Of a DNA stretch of 64,000 bases, positions 1 to 23,391 are shown one piece after another. Position 1 is the first letter of the stretch. Each line of letters opens with the position of its first letter. The notes beneath the pieces are model-generated. The model was not told the origin of the DNA. It did no database searches and was given only the letters and a program-made list of their open reading frames with translations. Made by a program: the position numbers and the translations under genes. This DNA comes from Escherichia phage vB_EcoM_JNE01: the sequence record OR670491; one strand, written 5' to 3'.

Positions 1-62
1 TAATTAAAAAGGATACACTACTCTTAAGGGACATTGATTCAAAAAACCGCATTCGTGCTAAT

Positions 63-365: not shown

Positions 366-375
366 AAAAAAACGA

Positions 376-402
376 GCCGGAGTGTTGACTTCGGCTTTTT
401 TG
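376..402 (+). terminator. rho-independent terminator
   Basis: Stem GCCGGAGT/ACTTCGGC with GTTG loop followed by T-run. Confidence 0.55.
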
Positions 403-433
403 TTTGGTACTATATCTAAAAATAGGAGGATTT

Positions 434-988: not shown

Positions 989-989
989 T

Positions 990-2178: not shown

Positions 2179-2180
2179 TT

Positions 2181-2597
2181 ATGTTACTGTATCATGCCAG
2201 CCCAGTTAAAATTGAAAACTTTTACATTCCATTCGGTGGTTTGCATCTGGGCGGCAAGAACAGTGCACTGGAAGCAGCCCTACGCAAGCTGAGAAGCCCT
2301 CTGAACGTCGTAGACGCTAATACGGTACATCTGCATACCTGTGAGGTTAACGTCGCTAACGTGTATTTCAGTGATGATTTGGGTAGTGATGATTCATGGC
2401 GTGAGCTTATTGAGTACTGCCAAGCTAATGGCTATGATGCAGTACAGTACAAGAATGAGTTCGAGCCTGATGCTGTTCCTAGCTACATGATTTGGGATGT
2501 ATCTAACATTCGCATCGTTGAAGTTGATCCTATGCATATGGATGATGCAGAAATGATTTTGGAGGATTTCTATGCAGAGTATGAAGGACAATCTTGA
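2181..2597 (+). CDS. hypothetical protein (138 aa), compositionally atypical (GC-rich)
   Basis: ORF; visibly higher GC than neighbours (e.g. 2221-2340). Confidence 0.5.
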   Translation: MLLYHASPVKIENFYIPFGGLHLGGKNSALEAALRKLRSPLNVVDANTVHLHTCEVNVANVYFSDDLGSDDSWRELIEYCQANGYDAVQYKNEFEPDAVPSYMIWDVSNIRIVEVDPMHMDDAEMILEDFYAEYEGQS

Positions 2598-3105
2598 GTG
2601 CACTAAGGTAATCTTGAAGATTGCTGAAATTTTCAGTACTTTATTGAGCGATGGAAAGATTACAGATGATCTGGTTCTTCCATACCCGTGGAAATTTTCT
2701 AAATTTTCTATATTTTATAAATTAGAATACAAAGAACATGCAGTACTGGAGTTTAATCCTAAAGCTGATTTCATTGAGAATAGTACACTGTTCGGAAAGA
2801 GTGGGTGCTATACATCGGACTTCAAAAAGATTACTACGCATATTCGTCCTTCTCCAGAAGAAAACGAGTTCCATTCATTTCTGTATCCTGAATTTAAGTT
2901 AACTGAAGAACTACTATTTCAGTACTCATTATTGTTCGAAGATGTACAAGATTTAGAGTTCTATAAAGAGTTAGTAGAAACTTTTAAGAATGTGAACCTT
3001 AAAAAAGATATTCTTATATTCTGGTTCATGGAGTATATTTCGAAGGATTTGCTAGATGAGTTTCTTCTAAATATGACAGCAATTAAGGAGAAGTTATATG
3101 CTTGA
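2572..3105 (+). CDS. hypothetical protein (177 aa)
   Basis: Long ORF. Confidence 0.5.
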   Translation: MQSMKDNLECTKVILKIAEIFSTLLSDGKITDDLVLPYPWKFSKFSIFYKLEYKEHAVLEFNPKADFIENSTLFGKSGCYTSDFKKITTHIRPSPEENEFHSFLYPEFKLTEELLFQYSLLFEDVQDLEFYKELVETFKNVNLKKDILIFWFMEYISKDLLDEFLLNMTAIKEKLYA

Positions 3106-3571
3106 CATTTTAGGTAATATTGATACAGTAAACTATTTCGTACAAGATGCATTGGTTGGGATTACGTCTAAGCCATTGCAGGTTCGCAACAATTTCCATC
3201 AGGGTGATGGATACATTGTGGACATTACTGAACCGAAAAAGAATGTATTCAATGTTAACATTGCAACAACAGGTCGTAACAATATCGCACGAATTATCAT
3301 TGACAAGAATGAAATTGTTCTTCGTTACAATGCTAAGTTCATGATGTTCTTCAAGAGTAAGACTGACATGTTCAGTACTAATCTCTTTGATGAACCATTT
3401 AAATTAGAAGATATCGAAGCAGTATTCTTTACTCAGAGTACGTGCTTTAAGTTCAGAGATGTAGAATTCAGTCCAGATGTAATGACTGAAACTTTACAAA
3501 TGCTAAGGATTATCTATTATGGGTTTAATGAGTTTGCACAAGAACGAAACCAGGTTAACAACTGTAGATGA
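3098..3571 (+). CDS. hypothetical protein (157 aa)
   Basis: Long ORF, start overlaps previous stop. Confidence 0.5.
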   Translation: MLDILGNIDTVNYFVQDALVGITSKPLQVRNNFHQGDGYIVDITEPKKNVFNVNIATTGRNNIARIIIDKNEIVLRYNAKFMMFFKSKTDMFSTNLFDEPFKLEDIEAVFFTQSTCFKFRDVEFSPDVMTETLQMLRIIYYGFNEFAQERNQVNNCR

Positions 3572-3977
3572 AACAATCGAGGCAGTACTGGCGAATCTTA
3601 GCTCCAAAAGGGATTACTGGTACAAAGGTATCCGTCTGTATCGTTTAACTGATCGTCACAATCAGGTTACGAATCAGTACGGTACACAGCAAGTCAAGTT
3701 CACTGCCTCAAAACGTAACACAGGGTTTGAAATTTCATGTGTAGTGTTAAATCTAAGTAAAAAACTTCTTGAATGCAATGAAGATTGTGCTATAATGTAT
3801 GCATCTGGTAACGAAGAGATCAAGATCGATTACAGTACACTAGATGAAATTGACTTCTTTCAGTACGAATGCATTGGCATTCAGACTCTAGGAGTTTCTC
3901 ATGATAAACTGAAGAAACTAATTCATACATTAAAAGGTATAATTGAACATGCAAGTAACTCCGCGTCTAAAGCTTAA
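3519..3977 (+). CDS. hypothetical protein (152 aa)
   Basis: Long ORF. Confidence 0.45.
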   Translation: MGLMSLHKNETRLTTVDETIEAVLANLSSKRDYWYKGIRLYRLTDRHNQVTNQYGTQQVKFTASKRNTGFEISCVVLNLSKKLLECNEDCAIMYASGNEEIKIDYSTLDEIDFFQYECIGIQTLGVSHDKLKKLIHTLKGIIEHASNSASKA

Positions 3978-4452
3978 TTTAGAAAAAATTGCTGATTATC
4001 TTCGTACTAACAATATGGAACATAGTCTTTCGATTACAAGTGACCATATCCAATGTAGTACTAATGATTATACTGTACTGTTCGGGTTTCATAGCCTACG
4101 TTTGTCAGTAGTAAATAATCATGATGATACAGCAATTGTCATTACACCTTGTGATGTACTGAACAATGATGGTGAAGTACTTCACAAGAAACAAACCGTA
4201 TTCCATATCTTCAGGGGTGATGAGCCACAAGCATTGGAATACGATACACTGAACGTTGATAGTGGTGAATTGTTCCAGTTGGGTTTAGTACATGATTGTA
4301 CTTTCATGGATAACCGAGTAATTCTTCCTTTGTTGTTGAATATTCTGGTTAACCTTACAACATCTTCAATCCGACACTTCAACGATTCTATTTTAGTACA
4401 GGCGATGATAAACGTTTCAGAGGCAATCGAGGAATACAAAGTCGCCAGTTAA
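3943..4452 (+). CDS. hypothetical protein (169 aa)
   Basis: Long ORF. Confidence 0.5.
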   Translation: MNMQVTPRLKLNLEKIADYLRTNNMEHSLSITSDHIQCSTNDYTVLFGFHSLRLSVVNNHDDTAIVITPCDVLNNDGEVLHKKQTVFHIFRGDEPQALEYDTLNVDSGELFQLGLVHDCTFMDNRVILPLLLNILVNLTTSSIRHFNDSILVQAMINVSEAIEEYKVAS

Positions 4453-4492
4453 CCAATGCACAGGGAGTGCGATAAAGGATCAAGGATAGATC

Positions 4493-4966
4493 ATGGAGAC
4501 GAAAACTGTTGAGAACGGAAAGATAGATGACATTTTAGAATTGGACGCATTTAAAGTTCATGATATAATGTTCAATGTTAAAGACATTATTCAGTGTCTT
4601 TTCTTATGTAGCAAAACTATGCATGACTACTTTCACAACCCAAATACTAACATCTTTATACTTACTATTAGTACTGAAAACTCTTTCATCATGGGTATGC
4701 CTATGAGTACTAATGAAAAGTACATTGATAGTGTAATCCGTAATAATGAGAACATAACCCCACAATCTGAAGTGCATAAGAAGAAAAATACTTATACCAT
4801 TAAAGATGATAAAATTATGTTATGTTGTACTAAGGGATTTATTTTGGATAATTTTAAAGTGAAAGATAGTTATCATGATTTCAAAATATCTGAAAAGCAA
4901 ACTAATGTAGTTTTATATGCCACCGATATTGAAAGCCTAACAGTTAAAGATCCTGATTTGGAGTAA
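4493..4966 (+). CDS. hypothetical protein (157 aa)
   Basis: Long ORF. Confidence 0.5.
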   Translation: METKTVENGKIDDILELDAFKVHDIMFNVKDIIQCLFLCSKTMHDYFHNPNTNIFILTISTENSFIMGMPMSTNEKYIDSVIRNNENITPQSEVHKKKNTYTIKDDKIMLCCTKGFILDNFKVKDSYHDFKISEKQTNVVLYATDIESLTVKDPDLE

Positions 4967-4968
4967 TT

Positions 4969-5100
4969 ATGGCTAAAAATGTAAACAACTTCGTTCAGAA
5001 ACACATGAATGAGTTTAACAAACCTCAAACCCATGTGGATCGCAAAAAAGCGATGAAGAATGGAAAAACAAAACACAAGTCGAGATATATTCTCGACTAA
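4969..5100 (+). CDS. small basic protein (43 aa)
   Basis: ATG 3 nt after upstream stop; lysine-rich MAKNVNNFVQKH...; not in ORF track (<60 aa). Confidence 0.35.
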   Translation: MAKNVNNFVQKHMNEFNKPQTHVDRKKAMKNGKTKHKSRYILD

Positions 5101-5119
5101 TTTTTTGCCTGGAGAAAGT

Positions 5120-5953
5120 ATGAAAGAATTTGATTACAAAAGTAAGTCAGTACTGGAATACATTGAATTACTAAATTCTAAAAATATTCCATTCGATGAT
5201 ACCAAGCTCCTTGGAAATGGAGATGAAAATTCATATAGTACTGAAAACTATGTAATCATTATTTCAAATGCAGCACCAGATATTGACATTACAGTACATA
5301 AGAAAAATAATGCCGCAGTGTTTATGTATACTCAAGATAGTAAATCAGAGTACTTACATTTCAGGGATATGAATTACTACAAAGAGAATGGTGAATTTAT
5401 ATTAAAATACAATATACTAAAGAATATCGAATTAAAAAAAGCACGATACTTTGATGGTGCTTATGACGTTAAAAGTTCAGATAAGCTTTGTATATTCACC
5501 ATGCATAAAAATATAGAAAAAGACAATGGATGGACTGAATTTGAAACTAAGTTCGATGAACAGAAAGTTTCTAATTTGTCAATACAAGAACGTTATGAAG
5601 GTTCAGATGTAGTGTGCAGTGCTGCTTACTTTCGTGCATTTGATAACACAACGAAACGTATGCAAATGCAAAACATTGACATTACGTTCAATGAAGGGTA
5701 TAGTACTGTTACTATTTCTTCAGGATATCGAAACAAGTTTACATTTGAGGTAGCAGTTCCAGACGGGTCAATTCTACACATATTTGACCCTGAATATATG
5801 TTCCAAGTTGAATTAACACTTGACACAGAGCAGTATGATAAATTACAATTTATTAGAAATTCAATCCAAGAAAAATTGGAATTATACCACTTACTAGGTG
5901 GAAAGAATCACAAAGCAACAATAGCATTACAAAATATCAAAAGTAAAAGGTAG
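5120..5953 (+). CDS. hypothetical protein (~277 aa)
   Basis: ORF; ATG 5120 preceded by GGAGAAAG; track start 5060 overlaps small upstream ORF. Confidence 0.5.
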   Translation: MKEFDYKSKSVLEYIELLNSKNIPFDDTKLLGNGDENSYSTENYVIIISNAAPDIDITVHKKNNAAVFMYTQDSKSEYLHFRDMNYYKENGEFILKYNILKNIELKKARYFDGAYDVKSSDKLCIFTMHKNIEKDNGWTEFETKFDEQKVSNLSIQERYEGSDVVCSAAYFRAFDNTTKRMQMQNIDITFNEGYSTVTISSGYRNKFTFEVAVPDGSILHIFDPEYMFQVELTLDTEQYDKLQFIRNSIQEKLELYHLLGGKNHKATIALQNIKSKR

Positions 5954-5972
5954 TTCAAGGAGAGGATTTAGT

Positions 5973-6266
5973 ATGGATACTAAATTTACAATAAAGTTTC
6001 TAGATGAGCCATGTATTCCATATATTGGTGACAGGTTCAAGCCTTATGGTGCGAAGGAAGTTACGCATCCTGATGGCAAAACAATATATTTGGCCCCAGC
6101 GTCTTATGAGCGAGCAGTTGAAATGCTTATCATGAATTCTAAGTATTGCAAAGACAAATATATTAGTTACTTATACAATGAACATGTGTTAGACTTCAAT
6201 GACGAAAACATGTTTGTACTGGTAGTTTCAGATTTTAGTACTTGGCACGAACATCTGTTGTACTAA
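5973..6266 (+). CDS. hypothetical protein (97 aa)
   Basis: ORF with GGAGAGG upstream. Confidence 0.5.
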   Translation: MDTKFTIKFLDEPCIPYIGDRFKPYGAKEVTHPDGKTIYLAPASYERAVEMLIMNSKYCKDKYISYLYNEHVLDFNDENMFVLVVSDFSTWHEHLLY

Positions 6267-6335
6267 AATAAATTGTGGACATTTAAATTCCTTATGATAT
6301 AATGTTCGCATCTTTTTTGATAAACGGAGATATAC

Positions 6336-6722
6336 ATGAATACAAGTTCAGTTCTAAAAGCGATTGGCGGTGTCCTTCTAATTGAAGTTCTAGGTGAGTC
6401 AAAACTCTGCTGCGTAGAAGACATGAAGAGTACTAAATTCTTCAGTACTGGTCAAATCTTCAATGCGATTCGCGTACTGAATGATAAGACTGTTGAAGAC
6501 TACGGCAAGGTTTGGCCTCAATACCGAAACCAAGATGGTGAAATCAGTACTGATTGGAAAACCTTAGAAGCAGTTCGTGAAAGCTGTAATAGCGATTGGG
6601 AATTCGTTATTGAAGTATGTGACCAACTACAAGAAGACGTTCCTGATGTTATCGAACGTAAAGAAGTACAAGCACAACTTGAAAAGTTCCGTCATGGTAC
6701 ACTACCATACGATCTTATCTAA
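6336..6722 (+). CDS. hypothetical protein (128 aa)
   Basis: ORF preceded by AAACGGAGA. Confidence 0.5.
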   Translation: MNTSSVLKAIGGVLLIEVLGESKLCCVEDMKSTKFFSTGQIFNAIRVLNDKTVEDYGKVWPQYRNQDGEISTDWKTLEAVRESCNSDWEFVIEVCDQLQEDVPDVIERKEVQAQLEKFRHGTLPYDLI

Positions 6723-6774
6723 TCTGCGATTTATCAAAAACATCTAATTAACATTATATAAAAAGGAATTTAAA

Positions 6775-7077
6775 ATGGAAGACAACGGAATGAAATTTGA
6801 CATGTTTGAAGGTGTACCAGAGTACGATTTCACTCGAATTGAAGAAGGTGAACAATCTGAAGTAGTTAGTGTTACACTAAAAGCTGATTCCAAAAAGAAA
6901 CCAGCAGAGCGTCGTGCTCGTTCTCAAGAAGAATATGAAACCTTCATCGAGAGCGTACACTATGAAACGTTCTATACTAAAGATGGTGCACCATATGAAG
7001 TTCGCGTTACAGTACTGAAGCCTGAAGTGAATCCACTTGAGAACCTTAAACCAGTTTACTGTTGGGCTAGTCATTAA
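6775..7077 (+). CDS. hypothetical protein (100 aa)
   Basis: ORF preceded by AAAGGAA; terminator downstream. Confidence 0.5.
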   Translation: MEDNGMKFDMFEGVPEYDFTRIEEGEQSEVVSVTLKADSKKKPAERRARSQEEYETFIESVHYETFYTKDGAPYEVRVTVLKPEVNPLENLKPVYCWASH

Positions 7078-7086
7078 TAGTCAAGA

Positions 7087-7114
7087 GGCTGGGAGATAAT
7101 CCTGGCCTTTTTTA
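7087..7114 (+). terminator. rho-independent terminator (wobble-containing stem)
   Basis: GGCTGGGA...TCCTGGCC hairpin then TTTTTTATT. Confidence 0.45.
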
Positions 7115-7128
7115 TTCAGAGGATTTAA

Positions 7129-8082
7129 ATGAAATTATACCTAATTCCATGTTATGATATTGAAGATTACAATTACGCGGAAGATAGCGAAGGTGGTAAT
7201 CACGCTTCCGATATGAATGTATTCAGCGTAAGTACTCATAAGCATGAACGTTATACTAACTTTAGTACATTTCTTCAATATAATACTTTTGAAAATTTGA
7301 CATTTCGCCAGCGTTACAATGCTTACGAATACCAACTAATTGATATTTCAGATGATCTAACTTTTCAATTCATGCTATTAGGTCTAAAGGATTTCGATTT
7401 CATTGCGTATAATCATAAAACTAAGAAGATCTATGTAGGTAATAATTCATATCGTATTGCAGGATTAGCATCTGATCCTAGTGAAGAAGAACCAGATCAA
7501 GCTAATGCTTCAAGTTCGACTTCATTAGCGGGTCGTCGTCGTGCACAATCAAAACATAATTCTTCGTATGGTGGTCGTAGTAATAGACCATCACAGCGTA
7601 TGTTTACGTTCAATTCACCACAAGAAGAACCAGTACCATACGATGAAGAAGATCAAGAAGAAGTTCAGATTCGTATTGACAGTACTAATGGATACGATGA
7701 AATTAAAAAAGAATTAATGGTTTACATGGAAGATATCTACTACAAGATGTTCACTAAAACTGCCATCCATTTACGTAGTTCAGGTAGACATATCATCGGT
7801 GAACAGTCTAATAGTCTGTTTAGTGATGATGGATATTCGTCTGTGTATGACCCAAATGCAGTGCGTAACGCAAATCCAGTAGGTTACAAACGTACTAATT
7901 CCTCTTATGATGAAGCACTACAATTGACCACTGAAGAGTTTGGTTTTTTGTTTGAATCATACTTGAACGATGATGAATTGTGGATTAATACACAAAAGAA
8001 AATCCATCATAGACACAAAGAATGCATTCGTGCTTATACTTGTGATGCATGGAAAAAGTTCACAGAATGTGAGACAAAATAA
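7129..8082 (+). CDS. hypothetical protein (317 aa), acidic/Ser-rich central region
   Basis: Long ORF. Confidence 0.55.
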   Translation: MKLYLIPCYDIEDYNYAEDSEGGNHASDMNVFSVSTHKHERYTNFSTFLQYNTFENLTFRQRYNAYEYQLIDISDDLTFQFMLLGLKDFDFIAYNHKTKKIYVGNNSYRIAGLASDPSEEEPDQANASSSTSLAGRRRAQSKHNSSYGGRSNRPSQRMFTFNSPQEEPVPYDEEDQEEVQIRIDSTNGYDEIKKELMVYMEDIYYKMFTKTAIHLRSSGRHIIGEQSNSLFSDDGYSSVYDPNAVRNANPVGYKRTNSSYDEALQLTTEEFGFLFESYLNDDELWINTQKKIHHRHKECIRAYTCDAWKKFTECETK

Positions 8083-9316: not shown

Positions 9317-9844
9317 ATGAGTGAAAAGGATTCTACTCAAACAAATAAACATTCAGTACACTTCAGTACTGGAAAGGATAACTGGACTACACCGAAGGAA
9401 TTATTTGAAGATTTGGATGAAATCTGGGGATTTACATTAGATGCTGCTTGTGTTAAAGAAACAGCACTATGTGAGAAGTACTTCACACCAGAAGATGATG
9501 CACTTTCACAGGATTGGGGTAAGAATATTTGCTGGCTCAACCCACCCTATAGTGATTTGAAAACTTGGTTATCTAAGGCGGTGGATGCATACAATAATGG
9601 TGCAACAGTAATGATACTAGTACCTTCAAGAACTGATACTATTGCATTTCAACAGTACGCAGCTAAGGTATGTGATTGTGTATGTTTCATTAAAGGTAGA
9701 TTGCGTTTTGGTATTCCTGAAGAACCTGAAAAGAAAACTGATTCAGCCCCCTTCCCTAGTTGCTTGATAGTACTGGATAAGTACTTGACTCCCGCTAAAC
9801 TAAATTATCTTAAATCTCTTGGATTGGTGATGAAGAACGTATGA
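9317..9844 (+). CDS. dam: DNA N6-adenine methyltransferase (phage Dam-like)
   Basis: Motifs FTLDAAC...WLNPPYS (NPPY catalytic motif) typical of phage Dam-family MTases. Confidence 0.7.
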   Translation: MSEKDSTQTNKHSVHFSTGKDNWTTPKELFEDLDEIWGFTLDAACVKETALCEKYFTPEDDALSQDWGKNICWLNPPYSDLKTWLSKAVDAYNNGATVMILVPSRTDTIAFQQYAAKVCDCVCFIKGRLRFGIPEEPEKKTDSAPFPSCLIVLDKYLTPAKLNYLKSLGLVMKNV

Positions 9845-10938: not shown

Positions 10939-11539
10939 TAATACTTATTTCCGCTACCTACGTCTCGGCCTGTCTCTACGTCCAATTCGTGGTAAATGTG
11001 ATTCTTTAGCGGACTTAGATTACGCTTATGCATTGCATTGTGATGGTGTACAATATGTCCTGGGTGACTTCGGTACGTTTGAAGAAACCAATGACAGTAC
11101 TGAACTAAAGACTGGTATTGATAATCTCAATCTCATTACCAACAGTTCACGTCATGATATTGTTCTTGAAATTCAAAACTTCATTGAACAAAATACTGGT
11201 AAGCGTACTTGGTCATATGTCGGTACTGATACCCAACTCTCTGTAGCGTTCGGTAATGACGAGGGTTATGTAGCCCAACTTATTATGGACTTTGAGAACG
11301 AAGAGAAGTTCCTTGAGTTCAAGGATAAGATTATGCAATCCTTGATTCATATGGGTATTCAAGAAGAGAATATGCCAGAGATTAAAGATATTGAAGAGTT
11401 TGTTTTAATCCCATCTGATGAGAAGTATGATGCGATGTTTACCAATCTCAAAGTTCCAGGAGTTATCGTGGAGTTCTTTGATGATGGTGATGACAGCATT
11501 TACATCGACCTAGATGACGATGGTGACGATGACGAATAA
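10922..11539 (+). CDS. hypothetical protein (205 aa), acidic C-terminus
   Basis: Long ORF ending DLDDDGDDDE; terminator downstream. Confidence 0.55.
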   Translation: MTNTNSNTYFRYLRLGLSLRPIRGKCDSLADLDYAYALHCDGVQYVLGDFGTFEETNDSTELKTGIDNLNLITNSSRHDIVLEIQNFIEQNTGKRTWSYVGTDTQLSVAFGNDEGYVAQLIMDFENEEKFLEFKDKIMQSLIHMGIQEENMPEIKDIEEFVLIPSDEKYDAMFTNLKVPGVIVEFFDDGDDSIYIDLDDDGDDDE

Positions 11540-11547
11540 TTTTTATT

Positions 11548-11572
11548 GCCCGATGTATGTCGGGCTTTTTTG
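11548..11572 (+). terminator. rho-independent terminator
   Basis: GCCCGA...TCGGGC stem then TTTTTT. Confidence 0.65.
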
Positions 11573-11585
11573 TAAGGAATGATAT

Positions 11586-11870
11586 ATGAAATCAGAAGAT
11601 ATAGAATTTACATATAGAGTTCTTTATAAAATGTATGCAAATCCAGTTGAAAATGATTTCACTTACTATGAAACACTTAGAACAATATGGATAATTTACT
11701 TACAAAATATTAAAGATTATTTCATAGGAAAACATATAACAATTAATAACATAAAATATAAATGTACTGATGTTACTAGTTATAGTGGGAAACTATCTAT
11801 TGAATTTTATCATCAAAATTCTTTTTATAGAAGATATCTTTCGGAGGTTAATTTGAATGATATTCAGTGA
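11586..11870 (+). CDS. hypothetical protein, tandem paralog family A (1/4)
   Basis: ~90 aa ORF; shares motifs (EFTYRVLY..., Y-x-G-[KR]-[IL]) with 11857, 12110, 13012. Confidence 0.5.
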   Translation: MKSEDIEFTYRVLYKMYANPVENDFTYYETLRTIWIIYLQNIKDYFIGKHITINNIKYKCTDVTSYSGKLSIEFYHQNSFYRRYLSEVNLNDIQ

Positions 11871-12129
11871 TTTACAATTCACGTATAAATGTATATTCGA
11901 TATTAAAGAGTCAGATAAATTACTTGACAATTTGTGGAGAATGTATCTAGAAGAAATACGTGAATATTTTTCGAAAGATGGTGGCTACACTATTCTTTAC
12001 AATAACGTAAAGATGGAGTACCAATACCTCCATAGTTACAATGGTAGAATTGAGGTTAGATTCTTTTCTAGTCAAATTGGTGGAAGGGACTTTATTTTGG
12101 AAGAATTAGATGAATACGAAACAGTATAA
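11857..12129 (+). CDS. hypothetical protein, tandem paralog family A (2/4)
   Basis: Overlapping start with previous gene; similar sequence pattern. Confidence 0.5.
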   Translation: MIFSDLQFTYKCIFDIKESDKLLDNLWRMYLEEIREYFSKDGGYTILYNNVKMEYQYLHSYNGRIEVRFFSSQIGGRDFILEELDEYETV

Positions 12130-12415
12130 AGACTGGCAATTCATATACAGATATTTGTACCGCCAGCACATCGATAGTATAGTTGAGAATGACGCATTTC
12201 GAATATTATGGCGTAGGGAGTTAGAAAAGCTTCGTTCACATTTCGTGGATTCTATATTCACACAAGATGGTCACATTTTCAAATGCGTTAGTGAGTACAA
12301 CATTCACTCATATGATGGTAACGTTGCTATAAGTTTTCATAAAATAACTGACGTTGATGATGGAAGAACATATACATACGAGATGACAAAATTACCGGAG
12401 AATCTTAAAACATGA
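12110..12415 (+). CDS. hypothetical protein, tandem paralog family A (3/4)
   Basis: Overlapping start; similar sequence pattern. Confidence 0.5.
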   Translation: MNTKQYKDWQFIYRYLYRQHIDSIVENDAFRILWRRELEKLRSHFVDSIFTQDGHIFKCVSEYNIHSYDGNVAISFHKITDVDDGRTYTYEMTKLPENLKT

Positions 12416-12612
12416 TACACTGTCCACATTGTAACAGTACTCAAATCGCTCGCTTCCGTCTTGATTCAGACTGGGCTAGTGGTGCTGGTGATTTCTTTCC
12501 CGTCAATGATGATGCGGAATATACTGAAGAACAACATAAAGATTTTGATAAATCATGGCGACCTGATATTGAATGCTTTTACTGCCTAGCGTGTGGTCGT
12601 ATCCATGACTAG
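12412..12612 (+). CDS. zinc-ribbon protein (66 aa)
   Basis: CPHC ... CLAC cysteine pairs. Confidence 0.45.
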   Translation: MIHCPHCNSTQIARFRLDSDWASGAGDFFPVNDDAEYTEEQHKDFDKSWRPDIECFYCLACGRIHD

Positions 12613-12838
12613 AGGTGAATTAGCCAGACGTACATTATCTATGCTTAAAGACTTCAACCACCAAAAAACAACTGAATATTACATTTCAACTTTACTTGAT
12701 TATTACTACCAGAGAAAAGTAATCCTGGGTCGTCATGAATTCACAGTGCTACACATGTACAGCAATGGTTTAGTATCTGTTAAAAATGAAACTTATGGTA
12801 CACAAATTTTAGCATTAAACATTCTTGGAGATATATAA
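12593..12838 (+). CDS. hypothetical protein (81 aa)
   Basis: ORF. Confidence 0.45.
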   Translation: MVVSMTRGELARRTLSMLKDFNHQKTTEYYISTLLDYYYQRKVILGRHEFTVLHMYSNGLVSVKNETYGTQILALNILGDI

Positions 12839-13015
12839 ATGAGTAATAAACTATTCTTTTTCCTATGGAGTCTGTTCTCTCTTACAGTACTGTCAATTGC
12901 AGGTGCTTATTTGTTTTTAAGCATGGATACATGGTATATCAATTTACTATGTCCATTTGTTGCAGTTGGATTTGGATTTACTTTACATAGTGTAATTAAA
13001 GACTTTAAAGAATGA
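12839..13015 (+). CDS. small membrane protein (58 aa, two hydrophobic segments)
   Basis: ATG right after upstream TAA; hydrophobic LFFFLWSLFSLTVLSIAGAYLFL; not in ORF track. Confidence 0.35.
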   Translation: MSNKLFFFLWSLFSLTVLSIAGAYLFLSMDTWYINLLCPFVAVGFGFTLHSVIKDFKE

Positions 13016-13302
13016 ATACAGAATCCAGTACTAAACTGCTACTAAAAGACATAGAATTCACTACAAAGGTTTTATATGAGTACTGGTCAGACAAAATTTT
13101 AGTTCAGTGTAATTCTGCTATGACAGATTTATATTTCAATACAGTTGATATTTTTAGAAATGAATTAATGCACAAACCTGTATTGTACAGGAATGAAGAG
13201 TACCAAATAGCTGCTGTTTCAACCAGTGCAGGAATGCTATTCTTGGATATTGAAAATTATAATTCATTTAGACCTGATGTACATTGGAAAACTTTAAGAT
13301 GA
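13012..13302 (+). CDS. hypothetical protein, paralog family A (4/4)
   Basis: DIEFTTKVLYEY motif as in 11586. Confidence 0.5.
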   Translation: MNTESSTKLLLKDIEFTTKVLYEYWSDKILVQCNSAMTDLYFNTVDIFRNELMHKPVLYRNEEYQIAAVSTSAGMLFLDIENYNSFRPDVHWKTLR

Positions 13303-13553
13303 ATCACAAACTAATTAATAATACAGCTACTATGCTTGCAGATAGTACGTATGAAATGGGGTTTGTCTCTAGGGCAATAGTAAAGCGTGAATTTCGAGAG
13401 AATATTCAGACATTGTATCAAGAAAAATATCCAAATGTTATTGACATATTGTTCACCTTTGATATACGTGTTTGCTTTACTAATTGCAGAAATCACCGTG
13501 AGCACTGCCCTTTGGATAAATTTGATATCTATTTCTCTACACCAGAGGTTTAA
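13299..13553 (+). CDS. hypothetical protein (~84 aa)
   Basis: ORF, ATGA overlap with upstream stop. Confidence 0.45.
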   Translation: MNHKLINNTATMLADSTYEMGFVSRAIVKREFRENIQTLYQEKYPNVIDILFTFDIRVCFTNCRNHREHCPLDKFDIYFSTPEV

Positions 13554-13832
13554 ATGACTCAACTTATTAACTGCAATCTTACCCAGCATACTATGAGTAT
13601 GCTTCATAAAAGCCTCCATGAAGAAAATATGAACATACAGAATGATTTGAGAATGAAGATAAAAAATGATCTCAATCGAATAATCAATATGTATTACAAG
13701 ACTAAACACAGTTCTATAATTAGTACATATTATGATTATGACCGCATTCGTGTTTCATACATCAACCGTAGCGGTAGTTTATGTGAGTCATACCTTGATA
13801 CTGTTATTGTTGAAAATATCCGTACAATTTAG
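13554..13832 (+). CDS. hypothetical protein (92 aa)
   Basis: ORF. Confidence 0.45.
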   Translation: MTQLINCNLTQHTMSMLHKSLHEENMNIQNDLRMKIKNDLNRIINMYYKTKHSSIISTYYDYDRIRVSYINRSGSLCESYLDTVIVENIRTI

Positions 13833-13893
13833 TCTGAACAAAATCTCAAGAAGTGATATAATAGTTGGTATGGAATAATAACTAACACAAGGA

Positions 13894-14631
13894 GTGTGTA
13901 AAGTGCTTGACCGTATCCGTTTTGCGACAGAGATCGCTAATCAAATGAATATTGCAAATTTTCAAATGCTCACATCTGTTATGGCTGAACATGCAACAGC
14001 GTATTCAGTAAGTGGTGTTCAGTGTGGACAAGAAAACCTTTTGGCTGATGTTTACAGTGAAGTCCAAAGTAAACAGTACAGCGTTAAAACATTCAGAGAT
14101 AAGTTTGTTAGTCTCTATATGAATGAAGATATTAAAGAAGACCGTAAATTCACGGACTTTATTATCGAACGAAGAGTGTCGGGAGTATCAAATCCTAATG
14201 CAGATAGTGATTCTGTATTTGCTGAAGTACTGAAAGATATATACGAAAATGAAGCTAAAAGTCTTAATCATTACAATGTACGTGAAACTAACACAGTGCT
14301 CTTGGGATATGATGAAGATGACCAGTACTACTATTTTCGTATGACCGAAGTACCATTTGAGTACCCTACACCACAAAGCACTTCAATTAAAGAGTTCACC
14401 GAGAAAAGTAAAAACTTCAAAATGCACGAAGGAAATCGTTGCAGTGTAGAAGGTTATGATGAAAACGGCACACATGTCTATAGCTGGGTCCACCCTAACT
14501 GTCAGACATATACTCGTTGCTTAAAGAAACGTTATAATCTTGAAGAACATGAATCTTTTTACTTTAAAGTTAAAAAACAAGAATACAATCGCCCTGCTGA
14601 CTCTGAGCTAATGGGAATGATTTACTTCTAA
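13894..14631 (+). CDS. hypothetical protein (~245 aa)
   Basis: ORF; GTG starts at 13894/13903 after AAGGAG; start uncertain. Confidence 0.5.
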   Translation: MCKVLDRIRFATEIANQMNIANFQMLTSVMAEHATAYSVSGVQCGQENLLADVYSEVQSKQYSVKTFRDKFVSLYMNEDIKEDRKFTDFIIERRVSGVSNPNADSDSVFAEVLKDIYENEAKSLNHYNVRETNTVLLGYDEDDQYYYFRMTEVPFEYPTPQSTSIKEFTEKSKNFKMHEGNRCSVEGYDENGTHVYSWVHPNCQTYTRCLKKRYNLEEHESFYFKVKKQEYNRPADSELMGMIYF

Positions 14632-14953: not shown

Positions 14954-15643
14954 ATGATTAAAGATATAGATAAAGTACTGTTTGTACTAAAAGGTATAGT
15001 CACTTTGTATCGTGATATTACAAATATGCAATCCACCTTTGGATTAAAAGACATGGAAACTGAATATACACATTTGGAATACCTTAAATCGTCCCTATGT
15101 ACCGAGGATTCGGAGTACTCAATTCATCCAGTACTGGTAGAGCCATTTCAGGGTACTGGGTTCGGTATTTTCGATAAGAACATGGAACTAATTTCGATGT
15201 TCAGAGTTATGGACGGTCTTATCAACAGAACAGTACTATACAGTACGTGGGCTAACATAAATCCAAAATATCCAACGATTAAAGCCTTTGATGGTTCCCA
15301 AAAAGAAATAACCGTCGATGTTGATGAGAACATGACAGAGGAAGAACACTTCCAGACTTTAATGTTCAGGCAAATGCCAGAGTATAAACATATGATTGAT
15401 GCAATCAATTATACTAAAGAGATACTTCCTGCACTTGAAGTAAACAAATTCATGCACCCTGTTGATTACAATCACTTGAACTTAGATTTATCTAATACAC
15501 ACTTCTCTGAAAAGGTATTACAGTGTATTCAAAATGATACTAAGTTTGATTTCCTAAAAATACTAAAAGAAAATCCAAGAACAGATTTCTTTAAAGAATA
15601 TAATAATTCGTTCAGTACTGGCGATACTTCATGGTGGAAATAA
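14954..15643 (+). CDS. hypothetical protein (229 aa)
   Basis: Long ORF. Confidence 0.55.
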   Translation: MIKDIDKVLFVLKGIVTLYRDITNMQSTFGLKDMETEYTHLEYLKSSLCTEDSEYSIHPVLVEPFQGTGFGIFDKNMELISMFRVMDGLINRTVLYSTWANINPKYPTIKAFDGSQKEITVDVDENMTEEEHFQTLMFRQMPEYKHMIDAINYTKEILPALEVNKFMHPVDYNHLNLDLSNTHFSEKVLQCIQNDTKFDFLKILKENPRTDFFKEYNNSFSTGDTSWWK

Positions 15644-15906
15644 TGGACATACAATCTCAATTACAATTGTTAACAGTACTTGAAGATGCGGCGTTTCAGG
15701 TTGTATCAGATATAAACAAATTACTCCCACCTGGAACTAAAGTACGTGTTAGAGAGAAGAGTTATAATACTTTCGAAATAGTTGAACAGGAATTAACTGT
15801 AAAAAAAGTAACTTATTATGACTCAACATTATGTATTCAGTGCGAAGATAAAGACGAGATGTTATTGTATTATAATCAACACACAGATATAGAGGTAATA
15901 TCATGA
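15643..15906 (+). CDS. hypothetical protein, dispersed small paralog family B
   Basis: ~85 aa; shares [LV]xD...G[KT]KVR core with 19148, 19398, 22117, 23118; start 15631 or 15643. Confidence 0.45.
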   Translation: MDIQSQLQLLTVLEDAAFQVVSDINKLLPPGTKVRVREKSYNTFEIVEQELTVKKVTYYDSTLCIQCEDKDEMLLYYNQHTDIEVIS

Positions 15907-17045
15907 CACATTTACAAATATACGAAGACCTAATGCACTTGTGCAAAACAAATGAAGCATTTTTTTATGTTGATCATAAAAGTCCGGCTGGTGGTACATA
16001 CCGTGTATTCACCTATCGTCTGGCTTCTTACACAGATTTCAGTCTTCCTAATGCACTGGAAACACGTGGTTCTATGTGGGAGATTGATGAAGATGGTGAA
16101 ATGATTCGTTGTGCTTCGCGTGCAATGAAAAAGTTCTTCAATGCTTACGAGAACCCATTTACAATGTTCAGTCCAGATACAACATGCGATGATATTGCTA
16201 TCGTGATGCCTAAACTGGATGGTTCAATCATCAGTACATTTCGTGATAATGATGGTGAAATCCGTTGTAAATCACATACTTCCTTGTCATCTGACCACGC
16301 AATTAACAGTACTCGACTATTGAACGAGAACCGTAATTTGTATGATTATGTAGACGAAGCTGAACGTTTAGGTTATACTGTGAATCTGGAGTATACAAGT
16401 CCAGAGTACCGAATAGTATTACCATATCAAGTAGAACAGTTATTTGTACTTAATGTTCGTCATCGATTGAGTGGTGAGTTGTTATGCGGTGCTGCATTAC
16501 GTTCGAAGTTCCCTTGTTTAGCACAATACAGTACTAACATGACAGGTAATAACATCTGTTCATCGTTTCCGGTGCGTTCTACCTTCAAAGAAAGTGTAGA
16601 TGAAGTACGTAAAATGGTTGACATTGAAGGATTTGTGTGTATCCTAAATAATGGTACAATGTGCAAATTGAAAACTGATTGGTATTGTTCATTGCATCTT
16701 ACAAAAGACAGTATTCTTATACCGTCACATTTGTACGAAACTGTACTCAATGATGCCAGTGATGACCTGAAACAATTGTTCAGTACTGATGAATATGCAA
16801 TGCAGTTGATATTAAAAATGGAACAGCGTGTCTTTTCATGCTATAATGCTTTACAAGATGAAGTAGAGAGCTTCGTCCAACAATACAAGCACTTGGAGCG
16901 AAAGGAATTCGCAATGAAGGTTCAGGAATGTCTTAAGAATGAACTGAACCGTCAGGGCTTGGCCTTTGCGTTGTACAACGGTAAAGTGGTGAATTATAAA
17001 GAAACTTTATTGAAGTACTACAAAGATGTACTAAAGGATTTTTAG
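15903..17045 (+). CDS. rnlA: RNA ligase 1 (T4 Rnl1-like)
   Basis: N-terminal FFY...SPAGGTYRVFTYRLASYTDF...ALETRG and ligase motif I KLDGS align with T4 Rnl1 as recalled. Confidence 0.85.
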   Translation: MTHLQIYEDLMHLCKTNEAFFYVDHKSPAGGTYRVFTYRLASYTDFSLPNALETRGSMWEIDEDGEMIRCASRAMKKFFNAYENPFTMFSPDTTCDDIAIVMPKLDGSIISTFRDNDGEIRCKSHTSLSSDHAINSTRLLNENRNLYDYVDEAERLGYTVNLEYTSPEYRIVLPYQVEQLFVLNVRHRLSGELLCGAALRSKFPCLAQYSTNMTGNNICSSFPVRSTFKESVDEVRKMVDIEGFVCILNNGTMCKLKTDWYCSLHLTKDSILIPSHLYETVLNDASDDLKQLFSTDEYAMQLILKMEQRVFSCYNALQDEVESFVQQYKHLERKEFAMKVQECLKNELNRQGLAFALYNGKVVNYKETLLKYYKDVLKDF

Positions 17046-18140: not shown

Positions 18141-19085
18141 ATGCCGACTATTACATTAACAGTTGGTTTGCCAGGATGTGGTAAAACTACATGGGCTGTT
18201 GAAGCAATTCGAAAAGCAAAGTCAAAGACTGTCAATATCAACCGTGATGACATTCGTGAGTCAATGGCTGGTTCACATGATGCATACAAATTCAACGACG
18301 CTAATGAGCAGTACGTAACTACATTACAGTTCAGTGCAGCCGATTTAGCAGCTAAGAATTCGTGGAACATCATCGTTTCTGACACGAACCTTAAACAAGG
18401 TTTTCGTGATAAATGGAAAATGTGGGCTTCAGACAATGGGTACGACTACAAAGAAAAAGACTTCTATCAGGATTTTGAACCTAAAGAAGACCGTGGTGCT
18501 GATGTACATGAATTCTTTAAGATTAAAGAATATGTAAAACTTTGTAAGACTCGTAACCTAAAACGCGAACGTTCAGTACAGGACAGTATCATTGATACTA
18601 TGGCACATACGTACTATTACAGTAAAATGCGTATGTTCAATGCGTATGAGCTTCAGAATTATGACTCATTACCGCATTGTATTATTGTTGATATCGATGG
18701 TACACTAGCTCATAAAGGGGGTCGTAATCCATTCGATGAAAGTACTGTCCTACAGGATACTCCAGACGAGGAAGTAATTCTTTCAGTAATTGCAGAAGCA
18801 CAGTTCTTTAAACGCAAGATTATCGTTATGTCCGGCAGGACTGAAGGGTGCAGAGAAGATACTGAGAAGTGGTTACTGACTTGGGGTGTGCCTTATGATG
18901 AACTATATATGCGAGCAATTGATGATAAACGTCCTGATGATGTAGTTAAGTACGAGTTACTATCTAAACACGTTGCTGGGAAGTACACGGTCAAGAAGGT
19001 TTATGATGACCGTGAGGCAGTAACATTTATGTGGCGTAACCTAGTAGGATTGAAAGTATTCCAAGTCGAACCTGGATTATTTTGA
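18141..19085 (+). CDS. pseT: polynucleotide 5'-kinase/3'-phosphatase (T4 Pnk-like)
   Basis: Walker A GLPGCGKTT, NINRDD, HAD motif IVDIDGTLA; overall pattern like T4 PseT. Confidence 0.85.
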   Translation: MPTITLTVGLPGCGKTTWAVEAIRKAKSKTVNINRDDIRESMAGSHDAYKFNDANEQYVTTLQFSAADLAAKNSWNIIVSDTNLKQGFRDKWKMWASDNGYDYKEKDFYQDFEPKEDRGADVHEFFKIKEYVKLCKTRNLKRERSVQDSIIDTMAHTYYYSKMRMFNAYELQNYDSLPHCIIVDIDGTLAHKGGRNPFDESTVLQDTPDEEVILSVIAEAQFFKRKIIVMSGRTEGCREDTEKWLLTWGVPYDELYMRAIDDKRPDDVVKYELLSKHVAGKYTVKKVYDDREAVTFMWRNLVGLKVFQVEPGLF

Positions 19086-19147: not shown

Positions 19148-19405
19148 ATGGATATGTTACAAGTGCAATTAAAACAAAGTACTGACTTGATACTTTCTAT
19201 TATTGAAGATCTAAATCAACAGTACTTAGGAAAACGTGTCATAACTCATACAAAGATTAAAGGGTTTGTTTCGTTAATTTATTTTAATTCATATGAAAAT
19301 AAACTATGCGTTCGAATTAGAACCATAGATGAAGAAACTGGGTATGAGGATGGTGGATTAGCATCTATACCTTTTCAAAATTTAAGGTTATTAGAAGATG
19401 ATTAA
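19148..19405 (+). CDS. hypothetical protein, paralog family B
   Basis: ...EDLNQQYLGKRV...; related to 19398. Confidence 0.5.
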   Translation: MDMLQVQLKQSTDLILSIIEDLNQQYLGKRVITHTKIKGFVSLIYFNSYENKLCVRIRTIDEETGYEDGGLASIPFQNLRLLEDD

Positions 19406-19649
19406 AACAGAATTAGCATTAGTAAAACTGCATGTAGACTACGCAACAGTACTCGTAGAAGATCTATCAAAAAAGTACGTTGGTAAACGTGTGCGTTGCT
19501 ATTATAGTGAATATGATTATAAACATGATTTCCGTGTACAAGAGATTTTTCTGTTCGACGGGGTTATTAATATTCGTGTAATCAATGAACATAACCATAC
19601 CTATACATATGGCCTAAATGCAACTATAGAGGAATTGCCAGATGAATAG
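19398..19649 (+). CDS. hypothetical protein, paralog family B
   Basis: ...EDLSKKYVGKRVR... Confidence 0.5.
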   Translation: MIKTELALVKLHVDYATVLVEDLSKKYVGKRVRCYYSEYDYKHDFRVQEIFLFDGVINIRVINEHNHTYTYGLNATIEELPDE

Positions 19650-19938
19650 TGTTTTGTCAAAATTAAAAGAATTGAATTTCTATACTTACCTGTGGCTTGA
19701 TGAACAGGAACAGGTTGTAAGCAGATCTTATTCCCATATAATGATTGAGTTATCAAAGGATATACTAAAAACAGAAGTAAAAGTATTTTGTCCAGAAGCT
19801 AATATGGGTGGGAAGATTGTTGATTTTACTTTCGCTGGATTTATCAACTATAATTACGAACGTTCACTTGGTATTAAGGTTGAAATTGGGGAAGACGATT
19901 ATTGTACCTTTCAGTTGCCCGATTTGGTGATACAATGA
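19642..19938 (+). CDS. hypothetical protein (98 aa)
   Basis: ORF. Confidence 0.45.
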   Translation: MNSVLSKLKELNFYTYLWLDEQEQVVSRSYSHIMIELSKDILKTEVKVFCPEANMGGKIVDFTFAGFINYNYERSLGIKVEIGEDDYCTFQLPDLVIQ

Positions 19939-20234
19939 ATGAGGAAGATTTAAGAATATTAACCTACTATAGTAATCATTCGATAATTTTATATGAGATG
20001 GTTTATGAATACAAATACAGCGAGTATCCTTTATTTGATTTAGTACTGAATTTTTATAACGAAGTACGTGACAAATATTACGGTAAACCCATTGTAATAT
20101 TAGATGATACATTTTATATAGCAGCAGTGCATGGTTCATTAAATGGTATATTCTTTGATTTGAAATCGGATCTTAAATCAAAACATGTTGATGATAGTTT
20201 GTATATTTCGGAGATACCAAAATGTCAAATTTAA
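19935..20234 (+). CDS. hypothetical protein (~99 aa)
   Basis: ATGA overlap start chosen (track start 19902). Confidence 0.45.
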   Translation: MNEEDLRILTYYSNHSIILYEMVYEYKYSEYPLFDLVLNFYNEVRDKYYGKPIVILDDTFYIAAVHGSLNGIFFDLKSDLKSKHVDDSLYISEIPKCQI

Positions 20235-20897: not shown

Positions 20898-21518
20898 ATG
20901 TTAACAACACTAGCAATTATTTGGGTTCTTGGTGTAATCATCACTGCTATGCTTGCATACAATCACAATCGCAATATCATTGGGTATTCTGTACTCGGTG
21001 TAGTACTGTCACCTGTGATTTCAATCGGTGTTCTCCTAATGCTAGGTGAACGCAACCCCAATCTATTCATCAATGACAACCGTGATAAGGTTACACCAGT
21101 ACCAGAAACTGTTATTCCTGAAGAACTAGCACCTGCACCGGAAGTTGTTGAAGTAATAGAAGAAGTCGTGGAACCTGTCAAACCAGTACCGCCAGTATTC
21201 CCTGAAGTGCAGGTTGTTCCTGAAGTTAAAAAGCATAAGTCCAATAAGTCCTCAAAGAAAGCACGATATACTAAAGGCAAGAACAAAGGTAAGAAACCAG
21301 ATACCCAAAGCACTTCCACTTCCACCACAACCACCACCAATACCCCTGATAACGCAGCAGGCATCGCTACAGCAGCCGTAATGACTGCCCTGTACGTTGG
21401 TGACGATTACAGTGATTACACCACTACAACGACGTATAGCTCGTCCTCTGACACTTCTTCATATGACAGTTCCAGTTCATGTGATAGCAGCAGTTCTTCT
21501 TCTGGTAGTTGTGATTAA
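20898..21518 (+). CDS. membrane protein with Pro/Val/Glu-rich linker and Ser/Thr-rich tail
   Basis: Two N-terminal hydrophobic segments; low-complexity PEVVEVIEEVVEPVKPVPP and T/S runs. Confidence 0.5.
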   Translation: MLTTLAIIWVLGVIITAMLAYNHNRNIIGYSVLGVVLSPVISIGVLLMLGERNPNLFINDNRDKVTPVPETVIPEELAPAPEVVEVIEEVVEPVKPVPPVFPEVQVVPEVKKHKSNKSSKKARYTKGKNKGKKPDTQSTSTSTTTTTNTPDNAAGIATAAVMTALYVGDDYSDYTTTTTYSSSSDTSSYDSSSSCDSSSSSSGSCD

Positions 21519-21519
21519 T

Positions 21520-21885
21520 ATGAAAGACCTGAAATACGTTTCAATGTATTACGAGGTACTCACTAATCAAATCCTAGAATACATCGATTCGGTCAGAAAG
21601 GATCTTACGGGTAAAACCGTAAGATTCACCGACGAATACATTGAACAACAGAACAGGGTTGAATCTTATACCTTCATTGATGACGATGGTACAATTTTTG
21701 AAGATGCAGAGGATATCACACATATCAGTACTGATATTAAGATGGAAGTCATTACTATTGTTAGTAAGAACACAACCAGACTATACGCAGTAGTTGAATG
21801 TCTATCATGTCCAGATGACACTGTGTATGATTTTGACCAATACATAGATCTTAAAAATTTAGTACTTATGGGAGTGGAGGAATAA
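21520..21885 (+). CDS. hypothetical protein (~121 aa)
   Basis: ATG just after upstream TAA; track start 21397 is an overlap-frame extension. Confidence 0.5.
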   Translation: MKDLKYVSMYYEVLTNQILEYIDSVRKDLTGKTVRFTDEYIEQQNRVESYTFIDDDGTIFEDAEDITHISTDIKMEVITIVSKNTTRLYAVVECLSCPDDTVYDFDQYIDLKNLVLMGVEE

Positions 21886-21887
21886 TT

Positions 21888-22124
21888 ATGATGACATTTT
21901 TTGGAATTTATGGTTTCGTTGCTATATGTTCATTTGTATGCAACTTTATAGTACTAAATTGGGGTTGTTTCAAAGATGAACTAATCACCATAATTAGTCT
22001 ACAATCCGCAGCACTTATGGCTATTATATGGCCTGTAACATTGGTATATCTTCTTATCTCATTGGTGCGAGATGTAAAAGATAAGTACGTTAAGAACTCT
22101 AAAAAAGGTGAGAAACATGACTAA
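21888..22124 (+). CDS. small membrane protein (78 aa, 2 TM)
   Basis: Hydrophobic segments; GGAGTGGAGG upstream. Confidence 0.5.
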   Translation: MMTFFGIYGFVAICSFVCNFIVLNWGCFKDELITIISLQSAALMAIIWPVTLVYLLISLVRDVKDKYVKNSKKGEKHD

Positions 22125-22374
22125 TGTAGATAAATCTCATATTCGTTATTTGTTTTCTTTAGTTGATGATTTCTTACAAGATATCAAGCCCAAGTACATT
22201 GGGAAAGAAGTCCGTTTGACACATACCAGAGGTTACTATAAACATATCATTGAAGATGTTATTCTTCGTAAGGGTGAGTTGTGCTTTAAAGTTTGCAATT
22301 ACCTTGAAGATGGTACGTATGCTGGTTCTCAAATGGTACATGATGATAAGATTATTTGGATGAATATTGAATGA
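22117..22374 (+). CDS. hypothetical protein, paralog family B
   Basis: ...DDFLQDIKPKYIGKEVR...; ATG 22117 after AAGGTGAG. Confidence 0.5.
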   Translation: MTNVDKSHIRYLFSLVDDFLQDIKPKYIGKEVRLTHTRGYYKHIIEDVILRKGELCFKVCNYLEDGTYAGSQMVHDDKIIWMNIE

Positions 22375-23117: not shown

Positions 23118-23381
23118 ATGCACGAAGAGATACAACAAATCATCAAAACTCGCATCAATTTTGAAAGTACAGTTTCGTCGATGGTCCATGATTATCGAAA
23201 CGATGTTCAAGCGTATCTATCTGACAAAGTTGTTGGGAAACGTGTGTGGTTTGAAGACATGTACCCAGAAGGTATTATCACGCGTATTGTAACAATGGGT
23301 ACAAACACTATATACGTAGAAATACAGTACAGTGGAAATAGATTATATCAAACGGATATTAAGTACGTTACGTTTTTATAA
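23118..23381 (+). CDS. hypothetical protein, paralog family B
   Basis: ...YLSDKVVGKRVW... Confidence 0.5.
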   Translation: MHEEIQQIIKTRINFESTVSSMVHDYRNDVQAYLSDKVVGKRVWFEDMYPEGIITRIVTMGTNTIYVEIQYSGNRLYQTDIKYVTFL

Positions 23382-23391
23382 GGAAATAAAA

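Follow-up and report, generated by a model that had tools for sequence, protein, structure and literature searches.

A lineage-restricted family of small, divergent paralogous proteins in an Asteriusvirus-like Escherichia jumbo phage

The DNA studied here, called the window throughout, is a stretch of 64,000 nucleotides from Escherichia phage vB_EcoM_JNE01 (sequence record OR670491). Between positions 11586 and 13302 it carries four small genes, named A1 to A4 below, which the initial annotation described as tandem, rapidly diverging paralogs with overlapping start and stop codons and a possible role in host takeover or anti-defence. Comparison of the encoded proteins makes A1–A3 certain paralogs and A4 a probable, much more distant member of the same family. 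The four open reading frames (ORFs) were confirmed at their coordinates on the plus strand, and the same coding sequences are annotated in Turkey5, an Escherichia phage of 351 kb. Specifically, the genes are:

11586..11870, plus strand: A1, 94 amino acids (aa); core member; nearest relatives are gp425-type proteins (38–47% identity); phrog_21004 matched with E 1.3e-10
11857..12129, plus strand: A2, 90 aa; core member; acidic, isoelectric point (pI) 4.6; phrog_21004 matched with E 3.6e-7
12110..12415, plus strand: A3, 101 aa; core member; phrog_21004 matched with E 1.8e-3
13012..13302, plus strand: A4, 96 aa; probable distant member; restricted to the lineage shared by the window and Turkey5

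Pairwise phmmer comparisons, in which the search space was the window's 354 six-frame ORFs, gave E-values of 1.7e-7 for A1–A2, 2.6e-6 for A1–A3, 3.9e-5 for A2–A3 and 2.4e-4 for A1–A4, but A2–A4 (E 0.83) and A3–A4 (E 1.2) were not significant. Mutual protein identity among A1–A3 is 22–31%. Each of the three matches phrog_21004 (E 1e-10 to 2e-3), and A1 has a second match, to phrog_32291; A4 has no PHROG match. The proposal of four paralogs is therefore solid for A1–A3 by both phmmer and profile comparison, and probable for A4.

The case for A4 comes from profile methods. A hidden Markov model (HMM) of the three sequences A1–A3 has A4 as its best non-training match (E 8.9e-5), the next of the 354 ORFs following at 0.15. 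An independent HMM, built from 27 proteins of four other phages only, scores A1, A2 and A3 at 84.8, 49.9 and 39.7 bits, respectively. For A4 the score is 19.3 bits (E 2e-5), and 2000 shuffled A4 sequences reached 12.1 bits at most. When the core family was aligned to A4 with hhalign, the probability was 69% (P 4.5e-5) and the match was colinear across 75 columns. Moreover, A4 joins the family in the second iteration of an iterated profile search. It could be argued that A4 is not homologous to A1–A3, that its likeness to them reflects chance and a common helix-then-strand pattern, and that the window has three members. The two non-significant pairwise comparisons would fit this explanation, as would the missing PHROG match and the unreliable structural model of A4 obtained from an alignment without A1–A3-type sequences. 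We consider it quite improbable, since A4 scores above all shuffles on the independent HMM, is aligned colinearly with the core over 75 of its 96 residues, leads the other non-training ORFs by three orders of magnitude, and shares with A1–A3 its length, the N-terminal motif 'KDIEFT.KVLY' and the gene block.

Two sequence motifs had been proposed as common to the four proteins, and both turned out to be approximate. The N-terminal block is roughly retained, reading DIEFTYRVLY in A1, DLQFTYKCIF in A2, DWQFIYRYLY in A3 and DIEFTTKVLY in A4. The C-terminal element Y-x-G-[KR] is present in A1 (SYSGK) and A2 (SYNGR) only; the corresponding residues are SYDGN in A3 and TSAGM in A4. Positions invariant across A1–A4 are limited to M1, D5, F8, G68 and L90, so that of the C-terminal motif the glycine alone is common to all.

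The genes A1–A3 are arranged in tandem as described, whereas three genes lie between them and A4. These three, and the pair that follows A4, are:

12412..12612, plus strand: zinc-ribbon gene, 66 aa, CxxC...CxxC; not a family member, used as positional anchor; phrog_22354 matched with E 6.5e-44
12605..12838, plus strand: likely fifth member, 77 aa from ATG 12605; positional counterpart of the 121Q gp428-type gene
12839..13015, plus strand: transmembrane mini-protein, 58 aa, hydrophobic (grand average of hydropathy, GRAVY, 1.01); not a family member; 60–64% identity in relatives
13299-13553 and 13554-13832: family B pair (phrog_32563), directly after A4

The nine genes from 11586 to 13832 follow each other without gaps as one block. 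A1 and A2 overlap by 14 nucleotides (nt), with GGAGG located 7–8 nt upstream of the A2 ATG, and A2 and A3 overlap by 20 nt. An ATGA overlap is found between A3 and the zinc-ribbon gene, between the transmembrane gene and A4, and between A4 and the 13299 gene. The zinc-ribbon and 12605 genes share 8 nt, and TAAATG marks the abutting ends of the 12605 and transmembrane genes and of the 13299 and 13554 genes. Overlapping start and stop codons, part of the first description, are thus borne out by the junctions, and the genes of the block would be expected to be translationally coupled. No direct nucleotide repeat families were found within 11500–13900, which indicates that the duplications are old.

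The window phage is, judging by its sequence, an Asteriusvirus-like (121Q/PBECO4-type) E. coli jumbo phage, and the family has a narrow distribution among the relatives of this phage. An exhaustive HMMER profile search of 1.84 billion representative proteins returned only 20 sequences (clusters at 50% identity) at E<=1e-3, and all 20 look like paralogs from the Asteriusvirus family. By tblastn the 34 related records, without exception from jumbo phages of Escherichia or Salmonella, all contain the family, and no other record among the 50,697 of phages does. IMG/VR yielded only 121Q itself, and a metagenome collection two 121Q-like contigs. A word-indexed protein search gave 5, 24 and 9 matches, counts that understate the family size. 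Relatives already present in databases, namely phrog_21004 and phrog_32291, 121Q gp422-426, gp428 and gp429, and phAPEC6 gp383c-389c, belong to the same protein family and occupy the same syntenic slot as the window genes; these entries are annotated only as hypothetical proteins or as PHROGs of unknown function.

The copy number of the family differs between phages. In 121Q, WPEC5, ph0011 and phage A4 five members are located between the 205-aa gp421-like gene and the 66-aa zinc-ribbon gene, and two more divergent members (gp428 and gp429 types) come after the zinc-ribbon gene. The window has three members at the first position. These four phages accordingly have 5+2 copies, Salmonella phage SD-6_S16 has about 4+1, and the window has 3+1 plus A4. 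Gene order in the window is gp421, A1, A2, A3, zinc-ribbon, gp428 type, transmembrane, A4, gp432, compared to gp421, five members, zinc-ribbon, gp428, gp429, transmembrane, gp432 in the 121Q type, so the window genes lie in the syntenic slot of the array, from the gp421-like to the gp432-like gene. The window lineage differs from the 121Q type in having three copies instead of five before the zinc-ribbon gene, in lacking clear one-to-one orthology (best matches 27–47%), and in the extra, lineage-specific A4 after the transmembrane gene. In SD-6_S16, where the array has fewer copies, a 96-aa protein (P0021, positions 2188-2478 of locus L011) is a chimera of a gp423-type (residues 1–65) and a gp424-type sequence. 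The chimera may be a product of recombination between tandem paralogs or, as the genome of this phage contains many fragmented ORFs, an assembly artefact.

Rapid divergence of the small paralogs, as first suggested, is supported by three kinds of observation: 27–47% identity of the family members compared to 62–87% of the interleaved and flanking genes, the copy-number differences, and the ratio of non-synonymous to synonymous polymorphism (pN/pS). More specifically, BLASTP identity to other Asteriusviruses is 73–81% for the gp421-like protein, 85–86% for the zinc-ribbon protein, 60–64% for the transmembrane protein and 84–87% for the gp432-like protein, and family members reach 27–47% to their best match without consistent one-to-one orthology. 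A4 has zero BLASTP matches in four other phages. In the comparison with Turkey5 pN/pS is 0.64 for the five family genes pooled, compared to 0.19 in 20 genes of the neighbourhood (Fisher p 0.008), values that are based on only about 28 substitutions; p is 0.024 once the unusually divergent RNA ligase is dropped. Among three near-identical variants of A1, five of the ten variable residues (36, 37, 40, 41 and 44) fall on one face of helix 2 with the spacing i, i+1, i+4, i+5, i+8. They interleave with W35 and with the family-conserved Y38, L39, I42 and F46, a pattern which could be expected of an exposed, evolving surface.

The structure of A1 was predicted by AlphaFold2 from an alignment of 22 sequences with good confidence (predicted local distance difference test, pLDDT, 89; predicted template modelling score, pTM, 0.78). 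The model has two helices (residues 3–18 and 25–46) and four strands (50–53, 56–66, 69–76 and 79–84). The most fitting description is a helical hairpin that packs against an SH3-like sheet of four strands, a predicted fold without a solved whole-domain counterpart. The A4 model mentioned above has the same order of elements with pLDDT of only 52.6, and it neither confirms nor refutes a common fold. Conservation across the family falls on hydrophobic or aromatic residues in helices and strands and on the beta-turn glycine G68, and variability and indels are concentrated in the helix-helix loop and the C-terminal tail. Along the helices the conserved hydrophobic and aromatic residues alternate with variable ones, as expected of a buried core. 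The median pI of the family is 5.25 (range 4.6–9.5).

Foldseek against the PDB found nothing at E<=1e-3; the strand half has weak matches, all to barrels of the SH3-like type (eIF5A/EF-P, Tudor, chromo, Rof). In a viral structure library the significant matches are the family's own members only, and the weak ones are several uncharacterised proteins of the jumbo phage RaK2 and one KOW-domain phage protein. Profile searches of Pfam, NCBIfam, PADLOC and PDB sequences gave nothing meaningful for any member. The four C-terminal strands of the A1 model weakly resemble small SH3-like beta-barrels (KOW, Tudor, chromo, the N-terminal domain of eIF5A/EF-P). By these searches the family does not belong to the SH3-like/KOW/Tudor group, as no sequence-profile or structural match was significant.

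The initial count of four members is probably too low. The gene at 12605-12838 occupies the exact position of gp428, and its start at ATG 12605 is backed by cluster P0026 and by the Turkey5 annotation. Its protein matches a gp428 HMM made without it (E<1e-3), and hhalign aligns the gp428 group to it over the full length with a probability of 59% (P 9.3e-5). The gp428 group in turn aligns to the core family with 84% (P 7.9e-6). Scored directly against the core HMM, the protein gives 9.8 bits, which is inside the shuffle range and not significant. It is likely that 12605-12838 encodes a very divergent fifth member, the connection being transitive through the gp428-type proteins.

Several more distant relatives may lie at 15.6–23.4 kb. 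When profiles were searched iteratively across five syntenic loci to which reversed-sequence decoys had been added, the set settled at 54 real proteins with no decoy among them. This adds the following:

seven extra window ORFs: 15631-15906, 19148-19405, 19398-19649, 19935-20234, 21463-21885, 22117-22374 and 23118-23381
19935..20234, plus strand: among these, a possible further relative of 99 aa, linked via A4 (phmmer E 2.5e-4)

At a score of at least 8 bits there were 19 real neighbours compared to 0 reversed and 1 shuffled sequences. Profile-profile comparison with other small-protein groups of the window reached a probability of 7.7% at best, with no firm superfamily link, and 1.1% when hhalign aligned the core to the 19935 group. 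Given these low probabilities, a wider superfamily of small window proteins is plausible, not established. In its broadest form, one module of 'helix + G-K strand + SH3-like sheet' would exist in 11 or more copies, perhaps over 15, along about 12 kb (11.5–23.4 kb) of non-structural genes, likewise in every Asteriusvirus, to form a diversified binder repertoire in which each copy neutralises a different host factor or defence system. The decoy counts and the weak structural matches to RaK2 proteins are compatible with this version. Multigene families of eukaryotic large DNA viruses offer an analogy for such an expansion; we hold this broad version to be unlikely.

What could be the role of these proteins? 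Our tentative preference, which we put somewhat below an even chance, is that the family constitutes a set of diversified non-structural intracellular binders of host or defence factors. We infer this from the combination of old, lineage-restricted paralogs, a compact predicted fold, retained reading frames and core residues, high divergence and turnover, and the lack of homologues in the virion proteome of phAPEC6. A host-takeover or anti-defence role, as first suggested, is consistent with the evolutionary signatures and with this lack. According to this proposal Asteriusvirus-type jumbo phages of E. coli and Salmonella would possess a lineage-specific family of small (77–101 aa), mostly acidic, non-virion proteins, each being a compact two-part module of an N-terminal helical hairpin and a four-stranded SH3-like sheet. 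Old duplications, losses and rearrangements would shape the array, as would amino-acid substitution, which is fast and mostly at exposed positions; in A1 these would be found on the outer face of helix 2, in the helix-helix loop and in the C-terminal tail. The paralogs may then represent a repertoire of small protein binders produced before virion assembly, each using its variable surface to dock on a target of its own, a macromolecule of the host or of the host's defence, and an arms race with E. coli strains could maintain their diversity.

Several observations weigh against this interpretation. No similarity to a characterised anti-defence or host-takeover protein was detected in Pfam, PHROGs, NCBIfam, PADLOC or PDB sequences. 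The pN/pS ratio is below 1 and, with so few substitutions, fits relaxed constraint equally well as positive selection. A4 is identical in the window and Turkey5, which means that A4 has not diverged recently. Three consecutive nucleotide changes at 11693-11695 lie within the A1 helix 2 cluster (11691-11720, residues 36–44), and for this reason the cluster could be a single recombination patch or conversion tract. Small proteins easily escape virion mass spectrometry, and the acidic character is not uniform over the pI range of the family. Note also that Acr–Aca type anti-defence loci have a conserved helix-turn-helix (HTH) regulator adjacent, whereas the conserved gene embedded here encodes a zinc-ribbon and not an HTH protein.

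Some of the same evidence would suit weakly constrained old tandem duplicates, drifting without distinct functions and tolerated by the spare capacity of the jumbo capsid. The pN/pS ratio is raised, yet below 1, copies have been lost or fused in some phages, and repeats at the nucleotide level are gone. Moreover, tandem duplication has been proposed as a route of jumbo genome growth by Hua et al. (2017; PMC5646251), who describe a genome-expansion ratchet for jumbo capsids and, elsewhere in the 121Q genome, a separate array whose genes, over 30 in number, closely resemble one another. Set against drift, every copy, though diverged to 15–30% identity, still has an intact frame, the conserved core residues and a sequence that can be folded with confidence, and none of the 34 related phage records lacks the array. 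The dense, overlapping arrangement of the genes, in which Shine-Dalgarno sequences are retained, argues for maintained expression. On balance we find it improbable that the copies are merely drifting.

Less likely again is a function in the phage's own gene expression, in which SH3/KOW/Tudor-like adaptors would bind RNA polymerase, Rho, ribosomes or nucleic acid, with paralogs specialised by promoter, transcript or infection phase; the non-significant SH3/KOW/Tudor resemblances alone suggest it. A role as virion components or assembly chaperones, for instance for the many paralogous fibre or whisker proteins, is very improbable: these phages do carry arrays of related structural genes (PMC7247149) and small chaperones are often missed in proteomics, but the homologues are outside the phAPEC6 virion proteome and the locus lies among nucleotide-metabolism and RNA-repair genes, not in structural modules. 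That proteome comprises 62 proteins identified by mass spectrometry (PMC7247149, Table 1), and gp383c-389c of this related phage are not among them.

Regarding expression of the nine-gene block, one further element lies just upstream of A1:

11548..11565, plus strand: terminator-like G+C hairpin, GCCCGATGTATGTCGGGC, followed by the T-run TTTTTT; 20 nt upstream of A1

The hairpin is kept at this position in all five phages compared (window, 121Q, WPEC5, ph0011 and phage A4), although its stem and loop bases differ. The interval between hairpin and A1 is too short for a promoter, and the region has no excess of sigma-70-like sites (35 found, 42.1 expected). For these reasons the block is probably co-transcribed by read-through from upstream, possibly at a reduced level. 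The genomic context makes the proposed location in a phage early region plausible, and the family may be expressed in the early or middle phase of infection. The relevant genes, all on the same strand as the array, are:

9317-9844: Dam methyltransferase, near the array
15903-17045: T4-type Rnl1 RNA ligase, near the array
18141-19085: polynucleotide kinase-phosphatase (PNKP), downstream of Rnl1
22371-23114: metallophosphatase

Near the array almost every long ORF is on the plus strand, and the G+C content is about 35%. By the annotation of 121Q and Turkey5, this is the non-structural, nucleic-acid-metabolism part of the genome. The window region is 98.2% identical to Turkey5 across 3 kb, and about 34 other Escherichia and Salmonella jumbo phages (121Q/PBECO4/phAPEC6 type, genus Asteriusvirus) match only as short patches. 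Window and Turkey5 are collinear position for position only from about 8 to 19.1 kb; the register is lost at 1–8000 and beyond about 19100, which implies insertions or deletions near both boundaries. An example of such an indel is one extra small gene of Turkey5 near 22.1–22.3 kb.

Other genes of the region deserve brief mention. The zinc-ribbon protein (12412-12612) is 85–86% identical to its counterparts in 121Q, ph0011 and phage A4, though its gene is embedded among the most variable genes of the locus, and it has only sub-threshold matches to the Lar restriction-alleviation and InsA/IS1 zinc-ribbon models. The family B genes at 13299-13553 and 13554-13832 are themselves small tandem paralogs (phmmer E about 2e-3 to each other), and other Asteriusviruses have a single copy, the gp431 type. 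In two phages this copy also matches the gp428-type HMM (E<1e-3), which hints at the same superfamily. Rnl1 (15903-17045) has a pS of 0.257 relative to Turkey5, 3–10 times that of neighbouring genes (0.01–0.13), suggesting a recombinational mosaic patch within an otherwise 98–99% identical region. Together with the later PNKP gene it makes up a T4-like RNA-repair pair; in T4, Pnk and Rnl1 counteract the host PrrC anticodon nuclease. The gene at 20898-21518 encodes a 206-aa protein with a hydrophobic N-terminal segment, a P/V/E-rich middle part and a long Ser/Thr-rich low-complexity tail ending in Cys/Ser repeats. The 95-aa protein of 23332-23619 has sub-threshold matches to DnaJ CXXCXGXG and Anti-TRAP zinc-finger models, and the 121Q annotation has it as a DnaJ-like chaperone. 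Next comes the gene of a PTH2-like peptidyl-tRNA hydrolase (23589-24029).

In kind the array is a familiar phenomenon, a plastic cluster of small accessory genes and a tandemly expanded viral multigene family, and the family itself is already in databases as hypothetical proteins. T4-like phages have plastic or 'hyperplastic' regions of small early genes. Like the array, these consist of highly variable, small, tightly packed ORFs on one strand between conserved genes and beside nucleotide-metabolism and RNA-repair genes; they are made up of unrelated ORFans, whereas the array contains paralogs of one predicted fold that may be, but need not be, early genes. Tandem duplication, divergence and copy-number change are likewise seen in the multigene families of African swine fever virus, the poxvirus K3L gene accordions and the tandem arrays of phages G and 121Q (PMC5646251). 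Gene accordions are recent amplifications, whereas the array has no DNA repeats and protein identity of just 22–31%. A recent accordion was ruled out by the lack of direct repeats in 11500–13900. The family is not mentioned in the literature on phAPEC6, on fEgEco12, or in Hua 2017 and Iyer 2021.

The family as such is well supported, and it opens no long-standing question. If its members bind proteins of the host or its defence, the array would amount to a small-inhibitor library that is compact and has diversified naturally, coming from a phage group that is under consideration for therapy against avian pathogenic (APEC), Shiga toxin-producing (STEC) and uropathogenic (UPEC) E. coli strains. 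In that case the conserved zinc-ribbon gene and the gp421 and gp432 anchor genes would make it easier to find equivalent variable cassettes in new isolates. The array is also a concrete case of how a jumbo-phage genome may be filled, one small fold being duplicated in tandem long ago and its copies then diverging to an extreme degree.

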